DNA of 64,000 nucleotides from Rickettsiales bacterium. GTDB lineage: Bacteria > Pseudomonadota > Alphaproteobacteria > Rickettsiales > SXRF01. Under the pieces are notes generated by a model. That model worked only from the letters and a program-made list of their open reading frames with translations. It did not search any database and was not told where the DNA came from. How positions within the stretch are numbered: position 1 is the first letter of the stretch; the number at the start of each line of letters is the position of its first letter. The DNA lies in assembly GCA_021299465.1 (NCBI GenBank), contig JAJTHB010000022.1:25256-89255 (forward strand), in the 5' to 3' direction. Below, in pieces: positions 3,592 through 61,164 of the stretch. Made by a program: the position numbers and the translations under genes.

Positions 3592-4872
3592 ATGCATATA
3601 AATCAGCAGCTTATGGCTTTAATCCGGCTTTATGCGCGGCCACGCTTAGTGGCGGTTTTGCTGCTTGGTTTCGCATCCGGATTGCCGCTCGCGCTGACTG
3701 CTTCGACCCTGTCGGTATGGCTCACTGAATCCGGCGTCAGTAAGGCGGCCATTGGCCTGTTTGCAGCGGTGGGCACGCCTTACGCGCTCAAATTCCTGTG
3801 GGCGCCCTTGGTGGACGGCCTGAGGCTGCCATTTTTCTGCCGCGTGTTTGGCCGCAGGCGCGGCTGGCTGCTGGCGACGCAGTGTTTGCTGGCGGCGGCG
3901 CTGGTGATGCTTGGCTTGGCTGACCCCGCTATTGACCCATGGCTGACCGCACTGGCGGCGATGTGTGTGGCGAGCTTATCTGCCACGCAGGATATCGTGA
4001 TTGATGCCTACCGCGTCGAGCTACTCAAAGAAGAAGAGCAGGGGGCAGGCGCGGCTGCCGTGGTGCTGGGCTATCGCTTCGGGATGATCGCGTCCAGCGC
4101 CGGCGCGCTGTTCCTTGCCACATGGTTTGGCTGGCAGGTGACCTATGTTCTGATGGCGTCGTTGCTGGCGGTGGGCGCGCTGGCGGCGCTGATGGCGGGG
4201 GAGCCGACGCAGGTTTCAGGGTTCAGGGTTCAGGGTTCAGAAAGAAAAAAGCTCAGCCAGTGGCTGCAAGACCATGTGGTTACGCCCTTTGCGGAGTTTA
4301 TGCAGCGGCCGCAGTGGCTCGCAATTTTGCTGTTTATTGTGCTGTATAAACTCGCTGATGCGTTCATGGGGGTGATGACCAATCCATTCCTGATCGAGAT
4401 TGGTTTTTCCAAAGAACAGATCGCAACCATCGTCAAGCTCTACGGGCTGATCGCTACCATTGCCGGAAGTTTTATCGGCGGGTGGATGGTCTATAAGCTC
4501 GGCATCATGCGGAGCCTGTGGATCTGCGGCATCGGCCACGGCGTAACCAATTTTATGTTTGTCGTGCAGGCATATGCTGGCGCGGATGAGGCGGTGCTGG
4601 CGCTCTCGATAACGCTGGAAAATGTCACCGGCGGCATGGGCACGGCCGCGTTTGTTGCTTACATCAGCCGCCTGACCAATGTGGCTTTCACCGCCACGCA
4701 ATATGCGCTGCTTTCCTCGCTTGCCGCCTTTGGCAGGACATGGCTTTCCACGCCTGCAGGCTGGGTGGCGGAGCAACTCGGCTGGCCGCTGTTTTTTGCC
4801 TTCGCCGCCGCGCTTGCCATCCCGGGTCTCGTGGTGCTGTGGTGGATGAGCTATTCAAGCCGTAAATTTTAA
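3592..4872 (+). CDS. ampG: AmpG-family muropeptide MFS permease
   Basis: 426 aa, multi-TM. N-terminal LLLGFASGLPLALTASTLSVWL is typical of AmpG. Confidence 0.85.
   Translation: MHINQQLMALIRLYARPRLVAVLLLGFASGLPLALTASTLSVWLTESGVSKAAIGLFAAVGTPYALKFLWAPLVDGLRLPFFCRVFGRRRGWLLATQCLLAAALVMLGLADPAIDPWLTALAAMCVASLSATQDIVIDAYRVELLKEEEQGAGAAAVVLGYRFGMIASSAGALFLATWFGWQVTYVLMASLLAVGALAALMAGEPTQVSGFRVQGSERKKLSQWLQDHVVTPFAEFMQRPQWLAILLFIVLYKLADAFMGVMTNPFLIEIGFSKEQIATIVKLYGLIATIAGSFIGGWMVYKLGIMRSLWICGIGHGVTNFMFVVQAYAGADEAVLALSITLENVTGGMGTAAFVAYISRLTNVAFTATQYALLSSLAAFGRTWLSTPAGWVAEQLGWPLFFAFAAALAIPGLVVLWWMSYSSRKF
4210..4240. repeat. tandem heptamer array (CAGGKTT x4.4) inside ampG
   Basis: The sequence reads CAGGTTT CAGGGTT CAGGGTT CAGGGTT CAG and encodes QVSGFRVQGSE in a predicted loop of AmpG. 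Confidence 0.8.
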
Positions 4873-5468: not shown

Positions 5469-6287
5469 TTGGCTTCAAACAAAGACGGATTTACATTAAT
5501 CGAACTATCTATTGTGCTGGTGATCACTGGCCTGCTTGCCGCAGGAGTGTTAATCGGCCGCGATTTGATCCGTGCTTCGGAGCTTCGCAGGGATATCGCC
5601 GAAATCGATAAGCTCAGCGCCGCTGTTAATACGTTCCGCGTAAAATATGGTTGTCTGCCCGGCGATTGCGGTAGTGTGCAGAGCTTTTTCCCAGAGGCTT
5701 TTGCTGGGGATGGCAATAGCCGTATTGTAAATATCGATGATGTGGGCGGCGTGCTGACGGAATCATCTGGTTTGCCACACCTTGATCGTGAACCTGCTTA
5801 TTTCATGGACCATCTTGCGCGTGCGCAAATGATTGCCAGCACGCCGTTTGACGCCACGCTGCCGGAAGATGCTTTTGCTATCGGCAAGGGGATTTATCCG
5901 CTGCGCTCAACCAACGTGAGCGGAGTTGCTGCACAGTGCCTTTATGATGATCTCTCATTCAGCAAGGTTGGTTGCCATTACTACGTGCTGGGAGTTTCAA
6001 AGTCCGAAGCTGCCGATGCGCTGGATACACTCCGCTCACCTTATGATGGTAAAGAGGCACGAAGCATCGATGAAAAAATAGATGATGGCAAACCACTCAC
6101 CGGCATCGTGGTGGGGCTGACATCTGCTCCATTTGATGACCAGCTAACGATCCCTCCCATCCCTTATGGCTCATTCACTGAGGGTCGCTGTGCGCTCGAC
6201 CCGATTGGCTATTACAGCGATGACACCTACTATAACCGTGTCAGTAGCAAAAAGCTGTGCGCACTCAGAATCAAGGCGCCGTTCTAG
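5469..6287 (+). CDS. type IV pilin-like protein (prepilin N-terminal methylation motif), paralog A
   Basis: TTG start with an AAGGTGG SD. Leader is MASNKDG followed by FTLIELSIVLVITGLLAAGVL with Glu at +5. It has KYGCLPGD after alpha1 and a C-terminal Cys-x22-Cys loop. 272 aa. Confidence 0.8.
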   Translation: MASNKDGFTLIELSIVLVITGLLAAGVLIGRDLIRASELRRDIAEIDKLSAAVNTFRVKYGCLPGDCGSVQSFFPEAFAGDGNSRIVNIDDVGGVLTESSGLPHLDREPAYFMDHLARAQMIASTPFDATLPEDAFAIGKGIYPLRSTNVSGVAAQCLYDDLSFSKVGCHYYVLGVSKSEAADALDTLRSPYDGKEARSIDEKIDDGKPLTGIVVGLTSAPFDDQLTIPPIPYGSFTEGRCALDPIGYYSDDTYYNRVSSKKLCALRIKAPF

Positions 6288-6289
6288 GC

Positions 6290-7765
6290 TTAGGCTCTGC
6301 CTTCTCCCGTGGCTTTAGCGTTTGGTGCCGGACGTTTGAAAGTGTGTTGGTAATAGGCTTCGTAACCCGCGAGCATTTGTTTATCCAGTTCATCAATCAT
6401 TGCGCAAAATTTTTCTTTTTGTTCTGGCGCAAGATATTTACAGGGATCATCCATTACTGCTTTCTTGGCATCATCTATATGGGCCCGTATCTCGCGAACA
6501 GCTTCCAGCGTTTGATCTGAGCTTAGACCGCACTCCTCTCCCAGCAAGTCAATTTTTCTGGGATTAATGCGGCTTAGCACATATTTACCTTGCTTGATCC
6601 CCAATGCTAACCATGAACGCTTGTACAGTGAGGTTGGCAGCAAGTCGTAATTTGGGGTTAGTTCCCACTTCCCATTTTCTTGCCTGAACGCAAAGTTTTT
6701 TAGGTGATTATCGGTATTGCCCATCAAGAGCTGGCCAACAATGCGCATAAAAACTTTCTTTTTGCCATCTTCGCCGAGATACTTTGTCGCCAGCTTTGCA
6801 AGGTCGCGATAGGTTCCCTCGTACTTCTTATAGGAGGGCTGCCCCATCATCTGAAGTGCCTCCTCAAAATGATGCCGCCCTCCTTTGTTATTCCTGTCAA
6901 AACGAGTAATGATCAGCGCTTTGTCATCAGTTCCTGAAAGCAGTGTAATCTGAGCTTTTGCGGTTTTATCTTCCGGTAACAGCTTGGCTGTTGCGACAAG
7001 GCTCATATACTCGTTTTCAAGCATGTCAGGAAAGCGCCTCATCCTTTCAGGCGTTTTGTGCCCCATCTTGACCATGTGCGTACTCATCTCACGCCTGCCA
7101 GTAGAGCGCACATCATTGTCGGCTTTAACCCCTAACATTTTACGCTGGGCACCGCCTAAGGTGCCGCGCGCATGCATACTTTCCTCAACTTCCTGTTCTT
7201 CAGTTGCGATTACATAGTCTGGTGCAACTGCATCAACCACCGCCACGGCACCGTGGAATCCACGGCCAAAAGTCAAAAAACGCTTGTAACGTTCAACGGT
7301 AGAATCCTGTTTCTCAAAATTATCGGTGGTCAGGATATCATCCTTGAGCCCTTCCATATGATGGCAGGCGTTACGCTGCTTAAGGCCAAGCCATCCCTCG
7401 GAAACTAGATTATCAAAAAATGGCAGGAGTGCCTTACCTTCGGGATCGCTGTAACGGTAGGGCTCTGTTCTTTTGGGAAGTGTGACTGAAAGTGGCTCAG
7501 TATGTGGGTCGTTTACATAATCCGGATGGTAGCAAAAAATAAATTCTTTGCCGTCACAGTAAGTAACACCAGCGGGAAAAATCGTTTGTCCATCCGGTTC
7601 GTGCCAGAATACGATGCCAACCTTGCCGATCCCTGCAGTACCATCAGAGTTTTTTTGTGGAATCGTTAGTTGTGGATAGCTCTTAAATTCATCAAACCAC
7701 TTCGGATCAAAGATGTAATCAAGCTTATCCTCGTCCCACCAATCTTTTGTCAGCCGAATCACCAT
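6290..7765 (-). CDS. hipA: HipA-family serine/threonine kinase toxin-like protein
   Basis: 491 aa. It has the coupling-domain motif LLPFFDNLVSEGWLG, the ATP-site motif GTLGGAQRKMLGV and the catalytic loop GNTDNHLKNFAF. Confidence 0.85.
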   Translation of the reverse strand: MVIRLTKDWWDEDKLDYIFDPKWFDEFKSYPQLTIPQKNSDGTAGIGKVGIVFWHEPDGQTIFPAGVTYCDGKEFIFCYHPDYVNDPHTEPLSVTLPKRTEPYRYSDPEGKALLPFFDNLVSEGWLGLKQRNACHHMEGLKDDILTTDNFEKQDSTVERYKRFLTFGRGFHGAVAVVDAVAPDYVIATEEQEVEESMHARGTLGGAQRKMLGVKADNDVRSTGRREMSTHMVKMGHKTPERMRRFPDMLENEYMSLVATAKLLPEDKTAKAQITLLSGTDDKALIITRFDRNNKGGRHHFEEALQMMGQPSYKKYEGTYRDLAKLATKYLGEDGKKKVFMRIVGQLLMGNTDNHLKNFAFRQENGKWELTPNYDLLPTSLYKRSWLALGIKQGKYVLSRINPRKIDLLGEECGLSSDQTLEAVREIRAHIDDAKKAVMDDPCKYLAPEQKEKFCAMIDELDKQMLAGYEAYYQHTFKRPAPNAKATGEGRA

Positions 7766-7906: not shown

Positions 7907-8926
7907 CTAGCCCAGTACATCCAGCAGTTTGTTGGTTAGTTGTGCGCTTGCCGAATCAGCGGCCAGCCCGCTATTGTTATAGCCGTTGGCGACTGGTGTG
8001 GGGCTGTCTAACAATTTAGTACCACCAGTATTTGATGCTGGATCGGTCTCAAAAGGGTTTTTTCCAGCGCGGAAAGCAGCCAGAAACGCAACAAAGTCAG
8101 CCGGGCTTAGAGCACCGCTGCCATCAATATCAGCACTCATGTCTCCGGCACGAAAGCGACTTAACATCTCGTCAAACAGCTTCGGATCAAGTCCACCGGG
8201 ATTGTTGTTTCCAAGCGGAATGGTCGGTCCAGGGTTTGCCGTAAGTACAGGATCGCCCAGCGTTGGCGTAACCGGATATTCCGGAGTGCCAGGAATAGCA
8301 GGGAATGGTCCTGAAAATGTTGGATTTCCTAAATCAAACTTCATGCTATCGATGAACGAAAGCACATTGCCCAGCGAAGAATAAGCCTGCTTGGCACCTT
8401 CATCAGTCATGATGTTGGGGCGTGAGCCGTTCACCAGGCCATTTTCAGATAAAGAACGCAAGATCATCTTCATCGGGTCGCGTGGTGGGCGTGAAACCAG
8501 CGTCAGGACTTCGGCGCTTTCAGCAGATACAGGTGCACTGAAGAGCGACATCATGCCGCCGAAGATCTTATTAAATGCCTGCTGCATTTGCGAGCGGTCA
8601 GCATCTGTCAGATTGCCTGAAGCCGCCTTTTCGGCCAGGCCACGCAGCTGCGTAATCATGCTGCGAACCTGCGCGGGAGCGTTCGGGTAAACCGGCGTGA
8701 CCGGACCTGCTACCACATCAATCTGAGTTGCTGCTTTTTGTATTTTGGGATTCTTGGGCGGGTTCGGCGCTGTTGGCATAGTATCTGAAGCGACAGGAGG
8801 CGTTAATCCTGCCGTCTTTAATTTGCTGACCGATGCAATCTGCAATTCATTTGCTGCTGGCTTAATGCGATCAATGCTGCGCGCAGTGCTGGATTGGTAA
8901 TAGTTACCTAGGGATGAAATCGACAT
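7907..8926 (-). CDS. hypothetical Pro-rich protein with a flagellin-like helical motif and an EF-hand/dockerin-like loop
   Basis: I chose the start at ATG 8926 (AGGAGGA SD 5 nt upstream) rather than the ORF-track start at 9079. The product is 340 aa. Motifs are ITQLRGLAEKAASGNLTDADRSQMQQAF and DIDGSGALSPADFVAFLAAF. Confidence 0.65.
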   Translation of the reverse strand: MSISSLGNYYQSSTARSIDRIKPAANELQIASVSKLKTAGLTPPVASDTMPTAPNPPKNPKIQKAATQIDVVAGPVTPVYPNAPAQVRSMITQLRGLAEKAASGNLTDADRSQMQQAFNKIFGGMMSLFSAPVSAESAEVLTLVSRPPRDPMKMILRSLSENGLVNGSRPNIMTDEGAKQAYSSLGNVLSFIDSMKFDLGNPTFSGPFPAIPGTPEYPVTPTLGDPVLTANPGPTIPLGNNNPGGLDPKLFDEMLSRFRAGDMSADIDGSGALSPADFVAFLAAFRAGKNPFETDPASNTGGTKLLDSPTPVANGYNNSGLAADSASAQLTNKLLDVLG

Positions 8927-9094
8927 AGCGTCCTCCTGACACTTGGCTGTGGTTTGCCTATTGGCTCGCTCGAGCAGGCAATTACCATGCCATATAAATG
9001 GTTCTACATGATCCATGTCCTTTTTCGAAGGACAGCGGCGAGAGTAACAGCTGGGGGTTAAGAAATGATTAGCCGTCAAGATTGTGGTGAATCA

Positions 9095-11511: not shown

Positions 11512-11760
11512 ATGTTTTTTCGCCGCCCGCCGCTCATGAATCAAGACCCGCGTGACCCGCGGTTTAATATTTTTTACATGCTGACCGGCGGTGTCACCTT
11601 TGTTGCGTTTGCCACCAGCTTCGGCCCCTGCCTCTTCAGTATCGATTCGATCCCCGCCTGTATCGAAAACGCGCATCAATGGGTGGATGTGCTGAAAGGT
11701 GTCGGCGACCATCTGATCGCCTGGGGCACCGCCTTCGTTAAAGCCGCTTTCGCGGCTTAG
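11512..11760 (+). CDS. small hypothetical protein (possible membrane protein)
   Basis: 82-aa ORF on the same strand as the repeat-protein gene, ending 19 nt before it. SD is weak. An alternative antisense ORF (11494..11826) cannot be excluded. Confidence 0.35.
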   Translation: MFFRRPPLMNQDPRDPRFNIFYMLTGGVTFVAFATSFGPCLFSIDSIPACIENAHQWVDVLKGVGDHLIAWGTAFVKAAFAA

Positions 11761-11779
11761 CTTAACCAAAGCCAGCCTG

Positions 11780-13468
11780 ATGACTGAATCCAGTAAGCCC
11801 AACTCCGGTGTTTCATTTTCTACCATTAAAGTGGATGGTCGCAGTCTTGAAACCAGTCAGGCATCATTTGAGGCGGCAAAAAAATGGCTTGCCGATCTTC
11901 GAGAAAAGATGCTTGAGCATCATAAATCATTTAGTGGCGCGAATTCTTTAGACGATGGCGTTCATTCTTTAGTGTCGGCAACTCAAATGCAGAGCGGAAT
12001 TATTGACGCATTGTCACACGGTGGTGCAACCAGCACGCTGATTGAGCAAACAGAAGAGGCGGCGCGGCGGCTGGGGATGCCCCCTGACGACGCCATCCGC
12101 CCCGCGCTTTACCGCATATTGGCCGTCGAGCTTCTTTCCAATGCGCAAAGCTATGACCTGCCATCGGAAAAAATGGTTATGTTAACAAAATATCAGGGTT
12201 TTTTGCCTTTACCTGAATTGCTGCTGGATACGGGAGGATATTTTGAAGGTAATGCCTCTACCGTGCAGCGGGTGGTGCTAAAGAACAAAGACCCTCGTCA
12301 AAAGTTGCGTGAGGTAAAAAAGGAAACAGACGCCATTCTGGCTGAAGAGGAATTTAAGGACTTCAAGGATAATGCCTCAACCGTGCAGCAGGTGGTGGTG
12401 AGAAACTTAGATCCGCGCCAAAAATTGCGCGACGTAAGGAGGGAAACGGACACGATTCTGGCCGAAGAGGAATTTAAAGACTTCAGGGATAATCGCTATA
12501 CCGTGCAGCAGGTGGCAGTGGATAACAAAGACCCACGCCAAAAGCTGCGCGACGTGATGAAAGAGACGTCGGCGATTCTGGCCGAAGAGGAATTTAAGGA
12601 CTTCAAAGATAATGCTTCTATCGTGCAGCAGGTGGTGGTGGATACAAAAAACCCGCGTGAAAAGCTGCGCGGCGTGATGAAAGAGACGTCGGCGATTCTG
12701 GCCGAAGAAGAATTTGTGAGCTTCAGGGATAATCACCTCACCGTGCAGCTTGTGGTGGTGGAAAATAAAAACCCGCGCGAAAAGCTGCGCGGCGTGATGA
12801 AAGAGACGTCGGCGATTCTGGCCGAAGAAGAATTTGTGAGTTTCAAGGATAATGCCTACACCGTGCAGCAGGTGGTTGCGGGGAACCAAGATCCTCGCCA
12901 AAAACTCCGTGACGTGAAGAGTGAAACGGACGCCATTCTGGCTGAAGAGGAATTTAAGGACTTTGTCGATAAGCACTCTACTGTGCAGTATGTAGTGGTT
13001 AGGAACAAAGACCCGCGCCAAAAGCTCCGTGACGTGAAGAAGCAAACGGACGCCATTCTGGCAGAAGTGGAATTTGAGGACTTCAGGGATAATCGCCCCA
13101 TCGTGCGGCGGTTGGTGGTGCAAAATAAAGAACCACGCCAAAAATTACGTGACGTGAAGAAGCAAACGGACGCTATTCTGGCTGAAGAGGAATTTAAGGA
13201 CTTCAAGGATAATGCCTCCACCGTGCAGCAGGTGGTGGTGGGGAATAAAGACCCTAGGGAAAGGCTCAGGTCAGCCTTAAAAAGCTATGAGTCCTTAGAG
13301 AAAGATTATCAAGAGCCGCTCGATGCTGGTAAGTTGACGAAAGCACATATTTTGCATGCCGCCGCCACTTACACGGGGCAGGGACAGAAAGATCGGTTGA
13401 ATGCGACACTGGCGAGAAAGCGCCTTGCGGCCTCACCGCTCGCTTCGTCGGTTGGGGTGGGCATATGA
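11780..13468 (+). CDS. orphan tandem-repeat protein (8.5 x 40-aa repeats)
   Basis: 562-aa ORF. Residues from about 159 to 498 are 40-aa units with consensus ASTVQQVVVxNKDPRQKLRDVKKETDAILAEEEFKDFKDN. Confidence 0.8.
   Translation: MTESSKPNSGVSFSTIKVDGRSLETSQASFEAAKKWLADLREKMLEHHKSFSGANSLDDGVHSLVSATQMQSGIIDALSHGGATSTLIEQTEEAARRLGMPPDDAIRPALYRILAVELLSNAQSYDLPSEKMVMLTKYQGFLPLPELLLDTGGYFEGNASTVQRVVLKNKDPRQKLREVKKETDAILAEEEFKDFKDNASTVQQVVVRNLDPRQKLRDVRRETDTILAEEEFKDFRDNRYTVQQVAVDNKDPRQKLRDVMKETSAILAEEEFKDFKDNASIVQQVVVDTKNPREKLRGVMKETSAILAEEEFVSFRDNHLTVQLVVVENKNPREKLRGVMKETSAILAEEEFVSFKDNAYTVQQVVAGNQDPRQKLRDVKSETDAILAEEEFKDFVDKHSTVQYVVVRNKDPRQKLRDVKKQTDAILAEVEFEDFRDNRPIVRRLVVQNKEPRQKLRDVKKQTDAILAEEEFKDFKDNASTVQQVVVGNKDPRERLRSALKSYESLEKDYQEPLDAGKLTKAHILHAAATYTGQGQKDRLNATLARKRLAASPLASSVGVGI
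12254..13273 (+). repeat. 120-bp in-frame tandem repeat array (8.5 copies)
   Basis: Units start at 12254, 12374, 12494, 12614, 12734, 12854, 12974, 13094 and 13214. There are no spacers and the reading frame is continuous. Confidence 0.9.
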
Positions 13469-13583
13469 TGCATCCCAGCCGCAGGCGCAGATAATTCTCA
13501 TTTTCTATGCGCCAGTACTTGCAACTTCGTTCGCGTTTGTTATAGAAATGACCCGATAGTCGTTTATTTTATCGGGATAATCC

Positions 13584-14123
13584 ATGAGTCATCACACCTC
13601 TTCTTCTGATCATTCGCACGAACCAACACGGCGCGATTTTATGGCACTCGCTGCTGGCGGCATGGCCGCTGTGGGCGGCTGCGCGGCGCTTTGGCCGTTT
13701 GTCGACAGCATGAATCCTGCTGCCGATACGCTGGCGCTTTCGACCATTGAGGTCGATCTTTCGCCGATTCAGCCCGGCCAGACCGTGCGCGTGAAATGGC
13801 GCGGTGTGCCGGTCTTTATCCGCCACCGCACGCAGGAAAATATCGATGAGGCGCGTGCGGTTGCCCTGACCGACCTCAAAGATCCACAAAGTGATGAAGA
13901 GCGCGTCCAAAAAGGCAAAGATCAGTGGCTGGTAATGGTCGGCGTCTGCACGCATCTTGGCTGTATTCCGGTGAATGATGCGGGTGATTACAAAGGCTGG
14001 TTCTGCCCCTGCCACGGCTCACATTATGATACGTCAGGGCGCATCCGCAAAGGTCCGGCGCCGACCAACCTCACCGTTCCAACCTATGCGTTCATCGCAG
14101 ATAACCGCATTAAAATCGGATAA
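13584..14123 (+). CDS. petA: ubiquinol-cytochrome c reductase Rieske iron-sulfur subunit
   Basis: 179 aa with a Tat-like N-terminus (TRRDFM) and the CTHLGC and CPCHGSHYD cluster motifs. Confidence 0.95.
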
Positions 14124-14128
14124 CACCC

Positions 14129-15400
14129 ATGGCACAAAAACCAACGACGCAGGCTCCCGGAGTTAAAGGCTGGATCGAGTACCGTCTGCCAATTTTCTCG
14201 TTCATCGATAATTCGCTCGGCAGCAAGTATCCCGCGCCGCGCAACCTGAATTACTGGTGGAATTTCGGCTCGCTTGCCGGCATTTGCCTTGTCATGCAGA
14301 TTTTAACCGGCCTGTTCCTGACCATGCATTATGTGCCACATACCTCGATGGCGTTTGACAGTGTGGAGCGCATCATGCGCGAGGTGAATTTCGGCTGGCT
14401 GCTTCGCTATATGCATGCGGTCGGTGCGTCGATGTTCTTTATTGTCGTTTATATCCATATCTCGCGCGGTCTGTATTACGGCTCCTACAAAGCGCCGCGC
14501 GAAATTCTCTGGTGGCTCGGCCTTGTGATTTTCCTGCTGATGATGGCGACCGCTTTCCTCGGCTATGTGCTTCCATGGGGGCAGATGAGCTTCTGGGGCG
14601 CGACTGTGATCACCAATTTATTCTCGGCGATTCCGGGTGTGGGCGAGGCGATTGTCCACTGGCTCTGGGGTGGTTTCTCGGTCGAGAACCCGACGCTGAA
14701 CCGCTTCTACTCGCTGCATTTCCTCTTGCCGTTTGTGATTGTCGGCGTGGTGATCCTTCATATCTGGGCGCTGCACGTGCATGGCTCGAACAACCCGCTC
14801 GGCATTGATGTGAAAACACCGCAGGATACCATCCCGTTTCATCCTTACTACACCTATAAGGATTTCTTCGGCTTTGGCGTTTTCGCGCTGGTCATGTTCA
14901 GCTTCGTGTTTTTTGCGCCGAACGTGCTTGGGCACCCAGACAATTACATTGAAGCCAATCCGCTGGTGACGCCGCCTCATATTGTGCCGGAGTGGTACTT
15001 CCTGCCGTTTTATGCGATTCTGCGCGCTACGCCCGACATCGGTATTCCGCTTACTAATATCATTTTCATCGAATCTAAACTCGCTGGTGTGATTGCGATG
15101 TTCGGTTCGATTCTTATTTTATTCGCGTTGCCGTGGATTGATCGCTCGCCGGTCAGAAGCGGTGATTTCCGCCCGCTCTTTAAGCCGCTTTATTACCTAT
15201 TCATGGTCAATATGGTGTTTCTTGGCTGGCTCGGCGCGATGCCAGCAGAAGGCATCTATGTGATCATGGGGCGCGTGGCTATGGCGATTTATTTTGGCTA
15301 TTTCGTAGCGCTGTGGCTGCTTTCTAAAAATGAAAAAACGTTGCCACTGCCGAAAAGTATCAGCGAAGCGGTGCTTTCAAAGCCTGCGGCCGCGCATTGA
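14129..15400 (+). CDS. petB: cytochrome b
   Basis: 423 aa, multi-TM. It has NYWWNFGSL and conserved His-bearing helices, and lies between petA and petC. Confidence 0.95.
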
Positions 15401-18673: not shown

Positions 18674-19933
18674 ATGCGTTTCTGGCTCATCGTTCTTTTG
18701 CTTTTGGCTTCTGTGCCAGCGTTTGCACAGAAACCCGCTTCGGGCGGCCTTGCTATTGCGGCGGTGGTAGGTGATGAGGTGATCTCCTCCTATGATGTGG
18801 AGGCAAGGCTTCGTTTTATCGTGGCCACCACCAAACTCACCAATAACGCCGAAACGCTCGCTCGTGTGAGGCCTCAGGTGGTGCGCGCATTGATTGATGA
18901 ACGGCTGCAGCTGAAAGAAGCAACCCAAAATAACATCGCTGTGACGGATGAGGATGTGGCTAAAGCCATCGCTGGTATTGAGTCACAGCGCAGCATGCCT
19001 GCGGGCGCTATTGCGCGGATGCTCACGCAAAACAATGTACCCAAGGCTACGTTTGAGCAGCAAATTCGCGCACAGATTGCCTGGAGCAAATTTGTGGGCA
19101 AGCGTATTCGCCCTGCGATTAAGATCAGCGATGAAGAAGCTGTGGCGAAGCAAAAAACGATCAGCATACCCAAGGTTAATCAGGAGCTGGAAATTGCCTT
19201 CCTCACAGTACCGGTGGACAAGCGCAAGCGCGAGAACGAGGTGCGCGCTATTGCCGCCAAGCTTGCTTCTGAAATGCGTGCGGGCGCTAACTTTGAGGAG
19301 CTGGCACGGCAATTTTCCAGCCGCAGCGCTAAGATGGATCGTTTCTGGATAAAGCCCGAGCAACTCGAACCAAGCATAGGTAAAACCCTGACGACGGCTG
19401 AGGCAGGCACCATCACCGCACCGATTCGTACCGAAATCGGCTATACCATCGTTAAGGTCTATAACACCCGATCACTTGAGCAAAAAGCTGATCAAGACCA
19501 GCAGGTGAAAGTAAAAGATATTCTGCTGAAACTTAAGGCTGATGCAGAGAATCAAGAGGCGAGCACCCTGCTTGTGATCGCTGAGGAAATTGCAAAAAAT
19601 CCGGGAGCCTGCGAAGAAAAAGGTATTGCAGGTATTGCCAATCTCGAGGATGTCGAGGTGGTGGTGGCGATACGTGACGCTCTGTTTTCTGAACTTTCTG
19701 CCGCGCTGAAAGCGATCGTTAGCAATTTAAAGGTTGGCGAGGCCTCGCCACCGTTTGCGACCGATCGTGGTATTCAGCTCTATATGCTCTGTGACCGTAA
19801 GGAAGTGGCCCCAGCCCCTGCGATAGCCGACCTCGGCCAAGTCAAAAACCTTATTCTTGCTGAGCGGCTCGAGCTGGAAGCCCAGAAAACCATGAGGAAT
19901 CTGCGGAGCGATACCTATGTTGAAATACGCTAA
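18674..19933 (+). CDS. surA: SurA-like periplasmic chaperone / peptidyl-prolyl isomerase
   Basis: 419 aa with a signal peptide (LLLLASVPAFA). It has a SurA N-terminal-domain-like region and a parvulin-like segment. Synteny with lptD supports the call. Confidence 0.8.
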   Translation: MRFWLIVLLLLASVPAFAQKPASGGLAIAAVVGDEVISSYDVEARLRFIVATTKLTNNAETLARVRPQVVRALIDERLQLKEATQNNIAVTDEDVAKAIAGIESQRSMPAGAIARMLTQNNVPKATFEQQIRAQIAWSKFVGKRIRPAIKISDEEAVAKQKTISIPKVNQELEIAFLTVPVDKRKRENEVRAIAAKLASEMRAGANFEELARQFSSRSAKMDRFWIKPEQLEPSIGKTLTTAEAGTITAPIRTEIGYTIVKVYNTRSLEQKADQDQQVKVKDILLKLKADAENQEASTLLVIAEEIAKNPGACEEKGIAGIANLEDVEVVVAIRDALFSELSAALKAIVSNLKVGEASPPFATDRGIQLYMLCDRKEVAPAPAIADLGQVKNLILAERLELEAQKTMRNLRSDTYVEIR

Positions 19934-20783
19934 GCCGAGCGCGTATGGATTTACGCTCATTGAGCTATCCATTGTGCTGGTGATTATCGGCCTTATTTTC
20001 GGCGGTATCCTGATCGGCAGAGATCTGATCGCGGCGGCTGAGATTCGCCGGTTTATAACGCAGATTGAGCAGTATAATGCGGCAGTCAATGTGTTTAAGG
20101 ATAAATACAGGGGCTTGCCGGGTGATCTTGTTGATGGCACGAGTTTTGGTTTTAAAGGAAACGGCAACGGCGATAAATGCATTGGTCTTTGTAATTCCGG
20201 AAGTTTGATTACCGACCTGGTTCTTGGCGGTTTTTCCGTTAGTGGGGGCTGGCAACAAAATGAAATGTCGATGTTCTGGTCAATGCTATCCGACGCCAAA
20301 TTAATCAGCGGTACCTATGACGGCGCGACCGCTGATTTCAGCGCCAACCCGATTGGAACAACCATTCCTGCAACCGCAGTAGATGGCAGCATTGGGCTGC
20401 TTGCTTATTACGGCACGGAAAGTGTATTGCCCGGCTGGTCGAATACCCGCCACTACATCACGATGACCAGCTATGTTTCGAGCGCATTTCAGCTTATGTT
20501 TGACGTTACGACACAGCCACACCGTCTGAAGGCGGTTTGGGCGCAAAGTATGGATAAGAAAATGGATGATGGCTCGCCCGGCGCCGGGCGTGTACGCGCC
20601 GGGGTAAGCGTTGACGGTTTTTTTGATCAGGTGGCAGTGAACGGCGATGATACGCAGGCGCCTTCGCTACCGCTCGCAGCCGGTCAGAATTGCACCTATG
20701 TGCCCTCCGGATCAACCCAGTGGATCTATAATGTGGCCGACGCGGCCGCTTCATGCTGGATGCGATTTGAAGGGGGATTTTGA
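19917..20783 (+). CDS. type IV pilin-like protein, paralog B
   Basis: The ATG lies 17 nt inside the surA 3' end. Leader is MLKYAKPSAYG followed by FTLIELSIVLVIIGL with Glu at +5. It has KYRGLPGD, MDDGSPGAGRVRAG and a C-terminal Cys-x20-Cys. 288 aa. Confidence 0.8.
   Translation: MLKYAKPSAYGFTLIELSIVLVIIGLIFGGILIGRDLIAAAEIRRFITQIEQYNAAVNVFKDKYRGLPGDLVDGTSFGFKGNGNGDKCIGLCNSGSLITDLVLGGFSVSGGWQQNEMSMFWSMLSDAKLISGTYDGATADFSANPIGTTIPATAVDGSIGLLAYYGTESVLPGWSNTRHYITMTSYVSSAFQLMFDVTTQPHRLKAVWAQSMDKKMDDGSPGAGRVRAGVSVDGFFDQVAVNGDDTQAPSLPLAAGQNCTYVPSGSTQWIYNVADAAASCWMRFEGGF

Positions 20784-61087: not shown

Positions 61088-61164
<77 letters not shown>

Follow-up and report, generated by a model that had tools for sequence, protein, structure and literature searches.

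Gene 11780..13468 (+ strand), which lies in a 64,000-nucleotide stretch of a 'Rickettsiales bacterium' metagenome-assembled genome (MAG; assembly GCA_021299465.1, contig JAJTHB010000022.1, positions 25,256 to 89,255; hereafter the window), encodes a tandem-repeat protein of 562 amino acids (aa) that is predicted to belong, as a divergent member, to an undescribed family of bacterial alpha-solenoid proteins. An N-terminal helical module is followed by tandem helical repeats of 40/41 aa, with a main period of 41 aa in the relatives versus 40 aa in the window protein. Judged by sequence, the family is a sizeable group of bacterial repeat proteins that was previously undescribed in all libraries queried. 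Two positions of the repeat unit, 6 and 10, are hypervariable across the family, and the array may constitute a modular recognition surface, with DNA or RNA as its most likely ligand.

The gene is a complete open reading frame (ORF) in the ORF list. Its N-terminal module (aa 1-158; 11780..12253, + strand) comprises a short predicted beta hairpin (aa 16-23) and then about 6 helices, and is conserved in the family, with near-invariant columns at R41, G53, R97, L114, E117, N121, T136 and G140 in alignments A1 and A3 of relatives. Eight full units of 120 bp or 40 aa each (12254..13213, + strand) are delimited by Tandem Repeats Finder (TRF), a unit table, DSSP on the structural model and a unit hidden Markov model (HMM) built from relatives only. 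TRF reports a period of 120 bp, present in 8.4 copies over 12246-13254 with 78% matches. A ninth, partial unit (aa 479-509; 13214..13306, + strand) follows the consensus up to DPRERLR and diverges thereafter, the consensus being held for ~18-30 residues. The C-terminal tail (aa 510-562; 13307..13465, + strand) is basic, with an isoelectric point (pI) of 9.7, and the model places helices there at aa 521-530 and 534-551, at lower confidence (predicted local distance difference test, pLDDT, 56-73). A segment of the tail, 'AHILHAAATY...RLNATLARKRL', has by eye some likeness to a degenerate unit, and the unit HMM gives no detection there. The protein as a whole is acidic (pI 6.1; N-terminal module, pI 5.0). 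The possibility that the N-terminal module consists of cryptic repeat units was rejected, as hhalign of the module against the repeat unit returned only a boundary overlap with the first unit. There is no second family gene within the 64-kb window, Rfam has no match in the repeat-gene region, and a promoter and terminator scan at the gene was uninformative.

The original prediction, which was made from the DNA alone, placed an in-frame array of 120-bp units from nucleotide 12254 (aa 159) in ORF 11780-13468, and the ORF list and TRF agree with it; the unit table likewise returns the consensus that it gave and the residues K, R, D, D, E, G, R, Q, G that it read at position 10. The units are not near-identical, as had been described, since their mean pairwise identity is 71% at the amino acid level and 76% at the nucleotide level, with dS ~0.81, and 16 columns are invariant in the unit comparison rather than the 17 first counted. 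Unit starts fall at 12254 + 120k, and the codons for positions 6 and 10 (unit start +15 and +27, within 12269..13243, + strand) specify, in order, the pairs RK-QR-QD-QD-LE-QG-YR-RQ, with QG in the partial unit.

The protein was at first taken for an orphan, a description that is overturned by an exhaustive phmmer search of 1.84 billion cluster representatives, which found 111 relatives at E<=1e-3, 59 at E<=1e-10 and 5 at E<=1e-30. A search with a 4-sequence profile recovered 58 relatives again. A word-indexed search, in which the window protein and a 33-sequence profile returned nothing or a query member only, missed these relatives through a sensitivity artefact of its candidate cap. The unit HMM built from relatives only matches 9 of the 9 window units, the full units at E 1e-11 to 1e-14 and the ninth at E 6.5e-6 over aa 482-509. 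Many relatives align from query residue ~26-38 on and through the repeats, so that the 158-aa N-terminal flank, in which no family had been recognised, is a conserved family module; that neither flank matches a curated family was correct. The general architecture is an N-terminal helical module of ~130-150 aa followed by ~3-12 units of ~41 aa. The N-terminal consensus reads ...SGK..G...LS...L.ERFEEMCRRR....LRP.I..LL..EL..N...L....T.Y.G. and the unit has the form EF..FRDTPGIF..AA...PSDP..FLR.V...I..L..D.

Variations on this architecture are few. In P0002 (667 aa) and P0032 (773 aa) the complete arrangement of module and repeats is present twice per polypeptide. One relative, P0055, has a signal peptide, which the window protein lacks, as had been predicted. 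The extra domains at the C-terminus of P0001 and the N-terminus of P0055 have no Pfam or PDB sequence match. Two apparent transposase fusions, P0116 and P0131, were rejected as functional fusions: IS1595- and IS5-type transposase frames run in-frame into the family genes, and probably represent insertion sequence (IS) elements that abut or interrupt them. In the source records the relatives are labelled 'hypothetical protein', with one 'uncharacterized Zn finger protein' and one evidently spurious 'MFS transporter', and their named hosts include Planctomycetia and Elusimicrobiota MAGs.

The expectation that no described repeat family would match was borne out by Pfam, NCBIfam, PDB sequence, PHROGs and PADLOC searches. 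Pfam gave no recurrent repeat-family match for the window protein, for 16 relatives searched singly or for all 58 members of alignment A3 at E<=1, and among these 58 members there was no match at E<=1 to the Arm, HEAT, TPR, Sel1, PPR, PUF, mTERF or TAL_effector models; for mTERF (PF02536, E<=1), TAL_effector (PF03377) and PUF (PF00806) the same is true of the window protein. NCBIfam has no match for the window protein or the family, and a PDB sequence search had none with the single protein or with the family profile. PADLOC and PHROGs returned only summed sub-threshold scores, with no single significant stretch. No family match was found by tblastn against 72,556 sequenced plasmids or among viral contigs, and a literature search on the family's motifs found no paper. 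A single match in a genome collection, to a Saprospiraceae Sel1-like repeat protein, was discarded as spurious because it rests on the common word EEFKDFK. That protein (L003, 8399-10675; 758 aa) has a P-loop-like N-terminal part and Sel1-like repeats of 36 aa (YNLAILYENEFKDFKKAEKYYLLAIEKG), and part of its sequence is masked as X. DNA-binding tandem repeats have been screened for in two published studies: the largest considered periods of 15-35 aa and at least 6 units only (PMC11417379), and a TALE-inspired one demanded at least 11 near-identical units (PMC5472282). Both would have missed this family, the former by its limit on the period.

The evidence that singles out positions 6 and 10 comes from 356 units of about 100 proteins, aligned to one model, with pairwise mismatch measured within each protein. 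In the 35 relatives with at least 4 units, the two columns of highest within-protein diversity are position 10 (0.82) and position 6 (0.75), and each ranks first or second in 15 of the 35 relatives, versus ~2 expected (binomial P ~8e-11, ties included). The pattern is sharpest in 11 relatives whose repeats are otherwise near-identical, where positions 6 and 10 reach 0.73-0.75, the next column 0.50 and all others at most 0.41. The residues at both positions are mostly polar or aromatic, position 10 using N/S/H/G/R/K/Y and position 6 using R/H/Q/Y, and only 5-10% are hydrophobic. The two positions co-vary, with mutual information at z = 4.2 versus shuffles, a result that is only suggestive because the shuffle ignores unit relatedness, and nine pairs (YN, HN, RS, HH, RG, QR, RN, RH and QN) account for about 40% of units. 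Conserved basic residues at positions 5, 15, 19 and 20 adjoin the pair, and conserved acidic residues at positions 31-33 and 39 line the other edge of the unit. In the window protein itself, position 10 is the most variable and position 6 is tied second, among 41 substitution events in 40 columns.

AlphaFold2 (AF2) models place these positions in a helical framework. The window protein, modelled with a 58-sequence alignment, has a mean pLDDT of 88.1 and a predicted template modelling score (pTM) of 0.74, and P0006, a relative close to the family consensus, a pLDDT of 93.2 and a pTM of 0.83. Both models are all-alpha in the repeat region, which contradicts the earlier reading of each unit as a beta strand (TVQQVVV), a turn and a helix; TVQQVVV is helical. 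In the window model, helix A spans positions 14-30 of the unit (PRQKLRDVKKETDAILA); after a break of one residue, helix B runs over positions 32-40 and 1-10 (EEFKDFKDNASTVQQVVVx), and N-K-D at positions 11-13 forms the loop. P0006 has three helices per 41 aa. Its H1 (~6 aa, DEFAEF) is separated by a T-P-G turn from H2 (~10 aa), and an N-P-S-D loop joins H2 to H3 (~17 aa); the motifs in consensus members are EEFxxF for H1, IFRxAAVx for H2 and PRxFLRKV... for H3. These models indicate that the ancestral unit is three-helical and that the window protein has lost the T-P-G turn, with H1 and H2 merged into one helix. The variability at unit positions 1-2 of the window protein lies exactly where the turn was lost and is thus specific to this lineage, as the same positions form the conserved T-P-G turn in relatives. 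Position 10 is the final residue of H2, directly before the conserved loop, and position 6 lies one helical turn earlier (i, i+4), so that the two should share a common face. The initial view of a rigid scaffold with a few specificity-like positions therefore stands at the family level for the polar pair 6 and 10 on one helix. The focus of diversity on such positions is not beyond chance in the window protein taken alone and becomes significant only across the family, for positions 6 and 10; position 6 was rightly listed as variable, and positions 1-2, which had been listed with it, vary only in the window protein and are not specificity sites.

The AlphaFold and Foldseek check that had been proposed thus returned a confident helical solenoid, with no beta strand in the unit and no significant PDB match. 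Among the sub-significant matches one fold recurs. Searches of the PDB with the P0006 model return human MTERF1-DNA complexes as 6 of the 7 top matches (best 3mvb_O, E 0.068, Foldseek probability 0.92, TM-score 0.25-0.29), with MTERF3 at rank 14, and the titles of the MTERF1 entries describe binding of double-stranded DNA. The window model matches generic long-helix proteins (dynein stalk, MSP-1 and tape-measure proteins), with human mTERF 3n6s at rank 6 (E 3.2), and a search of BFVD with this model gave tape-measure-like noise only. No ARM, HEAT, TPR, PUF, PPR or TALE structure was among the matches of the window model or P0006.

The genomic settings of the family were examined at 13 loci, the window included, of which 6 are mobile or defence islands, 1 is ambiguous and 6 are single insertions among housekeeping genes. 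Family genes are carried by integrative, conjugative or plasmid-like elements in about half of the examined loci and stand as single-gene insertions in about as many. In one island (L004), ArdC lies directly upstream of the family gene, together with an integrase and CBASS-type E2/ThiF genes, and another (L010) carries RepA, ParA, KlcB, a methylase and VapC. Two loci from different samples (L011 and L012) include a TrwC relaxase, an H-NS-like gene and DUF736, with ArdC additionally in L012. The block common to the two runs TrwC relaxase, 156-aa ORF, H-NS-like ORF, 213-221-aa ORF ... DUF736 and family gene, and suggests the conserved backbone of a plasmid or an integrative and conjugative element (ICE) that carries the family. 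At L027 a resolvase is directly downstream of the family gene, and a bAvd gene (an accessory protein of diversity-generating retroelements) is found at 13324-13614, ~5.4 kb downstream. Two integrases flank the family gene in the remaining island (L028), which also has ORF6N and toxin-antitoxin (TA) modules. Among the single insertions, P0026 (L009, 8001-8993) occupies an unusual site for an accessory gene, between the genes for the large (TPP enzyme) and small (ACT/ALS_ss_C) subunits of acetolactate synthase, upstream of ilvC; other copies lie between UPF0262 and infA, after guaA, adjoining COX15 and near trpCDG. No partner gene is common to all 13 loci.

What the array does is open to more than one reading. 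That it forms a modular recognition surface, with DNA or RNA the likeliest ligand, has close to an even chance of being correct, and is suggested by analogy with mTERF/pTERF for the fold, with PUF for specificity residues on the middle helix, and with TALE for variable residues before a loop and a basic helix start. Successive elements of a linear polymer, in all likelihood DNA or RNA as for mTERF, PUF and TALE, would each meet the 6/10 pair of one unit, with the conserved Arg/Lys of positions 5, 15, 19 and 20 flanking that pair. The 8.5 units of the window protein would then read a site of the order of 8-9 elements, and the N-terminal module might act as a cap, a nucleation domain or a partner-binding domain. 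The original prediction had likewise proposed a modular ligand or nucleic-acid binder, or an effector, and the sub-significant MTERF1 fold match, the flanking basic residues and the co-variation of the pair lend this idea indirect support only. A more specific proposal, that the family is a programmable, code-type class of nucleic-acid-binding repeats apart from TALE, PUF, PPR and mTERF, in which a 6/10 di-residue code specifies one element per unit and which is spread by conjugative or integrative elements and occasionally fixed in chromosomes, is decidedly more tentative.

Several observations weigh against nucleic-acid recognition. The mTERF match of P0006 is sub-significant (E 0.07-1, TM-score 0.25-0.30), and the window model has nothing in the PDB below E 0.9 and no TM-score >0.2. 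Taken by itself, the window protein shows no significant excess of diversity at position 10 (the probability of a column maximum of at least 5 is 0.13), and its 16 invariant columns compare with 14.2 expected. The net charge per unit is ~0 and the window protein is acidic, and D and E, unusual residues for nucleic-acid contact, occur at its position 10. Structural salt bridges are another possible role for the conserved basic and acidic residues, and the surface exposure and single-face alignment of positions 6 and 10 are deduced from helical periodicity and residue type only. No member is fused to a domain of known nucleic-acid function, and polar hypervariable i/i+4 positions on an inner helix likewise occur in TPR, ARM and ankyrin protein-binders.

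The last point leads to the best-placed alternative, in which the array is a protein- or peptide-binding scaffold, similar to ARM, TPR or HEAT adaptors, that helps mobile elements in anti-defence or establishment or acts as a secreted effector of an intracellular bacterium, with the 6/10 pairs diversified by an arms race. This is unlikely on present evidence, with a probability that is still substantial. The 41-aa three-helix unit has the armadillo topology of short, medium and long helices, and charge that is neutral to acidic suits a protein ligand. About half of the contexts are ICE- or plasmid-like, with genes for ArdC, DUF736, H-NS-like proteins, KlcB, an orphan methylase and TA systems nearby. 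An anti-restriction function has been characterised for ArdC (PMC7213743), and the leading regions of plasmids are known for clusters of anti-defence genes (PMC11541004). The Rickettsiales label of the host MAG and the signal peptide of P0055 would suit an effector. However, Arm, HEAT, TPR and Ank Pfam signal is seen in none of the 58 members at E<=1, Foldseek puts no ARM, HEAT or TPR structure before mTERF, PADLOC has no match, and each unit has 4-5 conserved surface Arg/Lys around the variable pair. The window protein, moreover, lacks a signal peptide, and its genome is metabolically rich: with genes for PutA, GlnD, homoserine dehydrogenase, AmtB, PhaC and the like in the window, the host genome is not strongly reduced.

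It is a good deal less probable that the protein is a structural rod or spacer without a specific ligand, in which positions 6 and 10 are merely the least constrained surface sites. The spread of substitutions in the window protein does fit a uniform model, and the Foldseek matches of its model are to generic long-helix proteins. However, the unit has many other exposed positions, yet the same two columns lead in independent relatives, most clearly where the repeats are otherwise near-identical; the pair also co-varies, its residues are limited to hydrogen-bonding and aromatic types, and the invariant polar residues of the conserved N-terminal module hint at a specific function. A rod is less likely because the variable pair is so specific and so recurrent.

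That the repeat gene is real and kept by selection is supported by two lines of evidence. The Nei-Gojobori means between units are dN 0.20 and dS 0.81 (ratio 0.25), which indicates an array that is old and under purifying selection in the + frame. The exact 562-aa protein is also encoded on two JGI metagenome contigs from different samples, the shorter of which is base-for-base the same as the window over 11540-14507, and this identity in a second independent assembly argues against mis-assembly of the array. The notion that there is no gene here, only a tandem-repeat assembly artefact or a fortuitously open non-coding satellite, might draw on the metagenome origin of the sequence, on a 244-aa antisense ORF that is likewise open over the array and on the lack of a clear Shine-Dalgarno sequence upstream of the ATG, and it can be set aside with near certainty given a dS ~4 times dN between units in the + frame, the same DNA in two independent assemblies, protein homologs with conserved non-repeat N-terminal modules across many lineages, and a confident AF2 model. 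The antisense ORF (12407-13141, - strand) is a consequence of the DNA repeat, and three identical terminator-like hairpins (12569-12585, 12689-12705 and 12809-12825, - strand) are copies of the repeat; neither is an independent feature.

In the window, the repeat gene sits between trmL and petABC. The flanking HemF, TrmL, PetA, PetB, LptD and SurA are identical or at least 90% identical to the MAG proteins MCE2927608-616, among which exactly two accessions fall between trmL and petA. One is MCE2927610.1, a hypothetical protein specified by an 82-aa ORF (11512..11760, + strand) that ends 19 nt before the ATG of the repeat gene, is found on 9 contigs and has by eye a hydrophobic, possibly membrane-spanning stretch; the second, presumably MCE2927611.1, would be the repeat gene. 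The 82-aa ORF is possibly co-transcribed with the repeat gene, and no counterpart was seen beside the other family members examined. The GC content is 0.50 for the repeat gene and 0.48 for its N-terminal part, and 0.53-0.57 for the neighbours. No direct or inverted repeats or insertion scars were found around the gene beyond one 11-mer, which is at chance level.

Other features of the window include, on the - strand, a HipA-family toxin kinase gene (Couple_hipA and HipA_C; 6290-7765), the gene for a 390-aa Pro/Ala-rich protein upstream of hemF (7907-9079), which has no family assignment and a sub-threshold GC-type dockerin match at E 3e-5, and a gene for a 216-aa hypothetical protein without family assignment (MCE2927607.1; 9095-9745), also upstream of hemF and near it. 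Genes with a prepilin-type N-terminal methylation motif are present at 5469-6287 and 19917-20783, with others in loci L006, L012 and L004, and no functional link to the repeat family was seen. The only RNA gene detected is a tRNA-Arg (CCT) at 61088-61164 (+ strand). At position 4554 the window differs by one base from the copy of its source contig (L001, position 2775).

Few scaffolds are known in which specificity resides in one or two residues per unit. Those that are (TALE, PUF, PPR and, recently, STAR and pTERF) now serve as tools to target genomes and transcripts. The family described here belongs to a known kind, the helical tandem-repeat binders, as a new family of it and a possible programmable scaffold, with more than 100 sequence clusters, very confident models, variability at two positions and no Pfam, NCBIfam or PDB entry. 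If the 6/10 pair encodes ligand specificity, the family would be a new engineerable scaffold, and the question would arise as to what mobile elements, and bacteria that keep single copies, use it for. If the ligand is a protein, this would still be a new repeat fold family tied to accessory regions of plasmids and ICEs.

Among known systems, ARM repeats resemble the consensus unit in period (~42 aa) and in helix order, which is nearly the same. ARM units are built of short, medium and long helices, with ligand contacts mainly on H3. The family differs in having its variable pair on H2, and in the lack of any Arm Pfam or Foldseek match. PUF proteins share the three-helix unit and the placement of specificity residues at fixed spacing on the middle helix. 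In the PUF code the specificity positions are 12, 13 and 16. PUF proteins and the family also both use R/H/Y frequently at one site and N/S/Q at another. PUF units, however, are 36 aa long, usually eight per domain, and eukaryotic.

TALE and TALE-like proteins (the AvrBs3 family, RipTAL, BurrH/Bat, MOrTL and STAR) resemble the family in that near-constant helical units carry two main variable positions; the TALE features compared are in part those given in PMC4787788. In both, the variable positions lie at the end of the shorter helix before the inter-helix loop, conserved basic or polar residues start the next long helix, and the variable sites draw on a common alphabet rich in N/H/S/G/K/D. 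The differences are that TALE units are 33-35 aa long, with two helices and adjacent variable residues 12 and 13 in the loop, whereas those of the family are 40/41 aa long, with three helices in consensus members and variable residues spaced i/i+4 on a helix.

The mTERF proteins (MTERF1 and MTERF3; 3MVA, 3MVB, 3N6S and 3M66) are, like the family, all-alpha solenoids of tandem three-helix units, and theirs is the only solved fold at the head of the Foldseek list for the consensus member; it recurs for the window model. The mTERF proteins are not known for a pair of hypervariable code positions. The units of the family are strictly tandem and 40/41 aa long, with three helices in consensus members and two in the window model, whereas mTERF units are ~30-35 aa long and are not strictly tandem in the eukaryotic proteins (PMC11417379). 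In the literature, the nearest bacterial counterpart is pTERF (Hu et al., NAR 2024), a prokaryotic mTERF-like protein that binds specific double-stranded DNA motifs, and in which rearrangement of the repeats changes the motif (PMC11417379). It has a 35-aa period (TR_35_C32_2), annotated mTERF motifs and hosts among Bacillota MAGs (PMC11417379), a description that sets apart the present family, with its 40/41-aa period, its lack of mTERF annotation and its occurrence in Rickettsiales-labelled, Planctomycetia and Elusimicrobiota MAGs. Both are bacterial, metagenome-only and without close relatives, and both are built of strictly tandem three-helix units.

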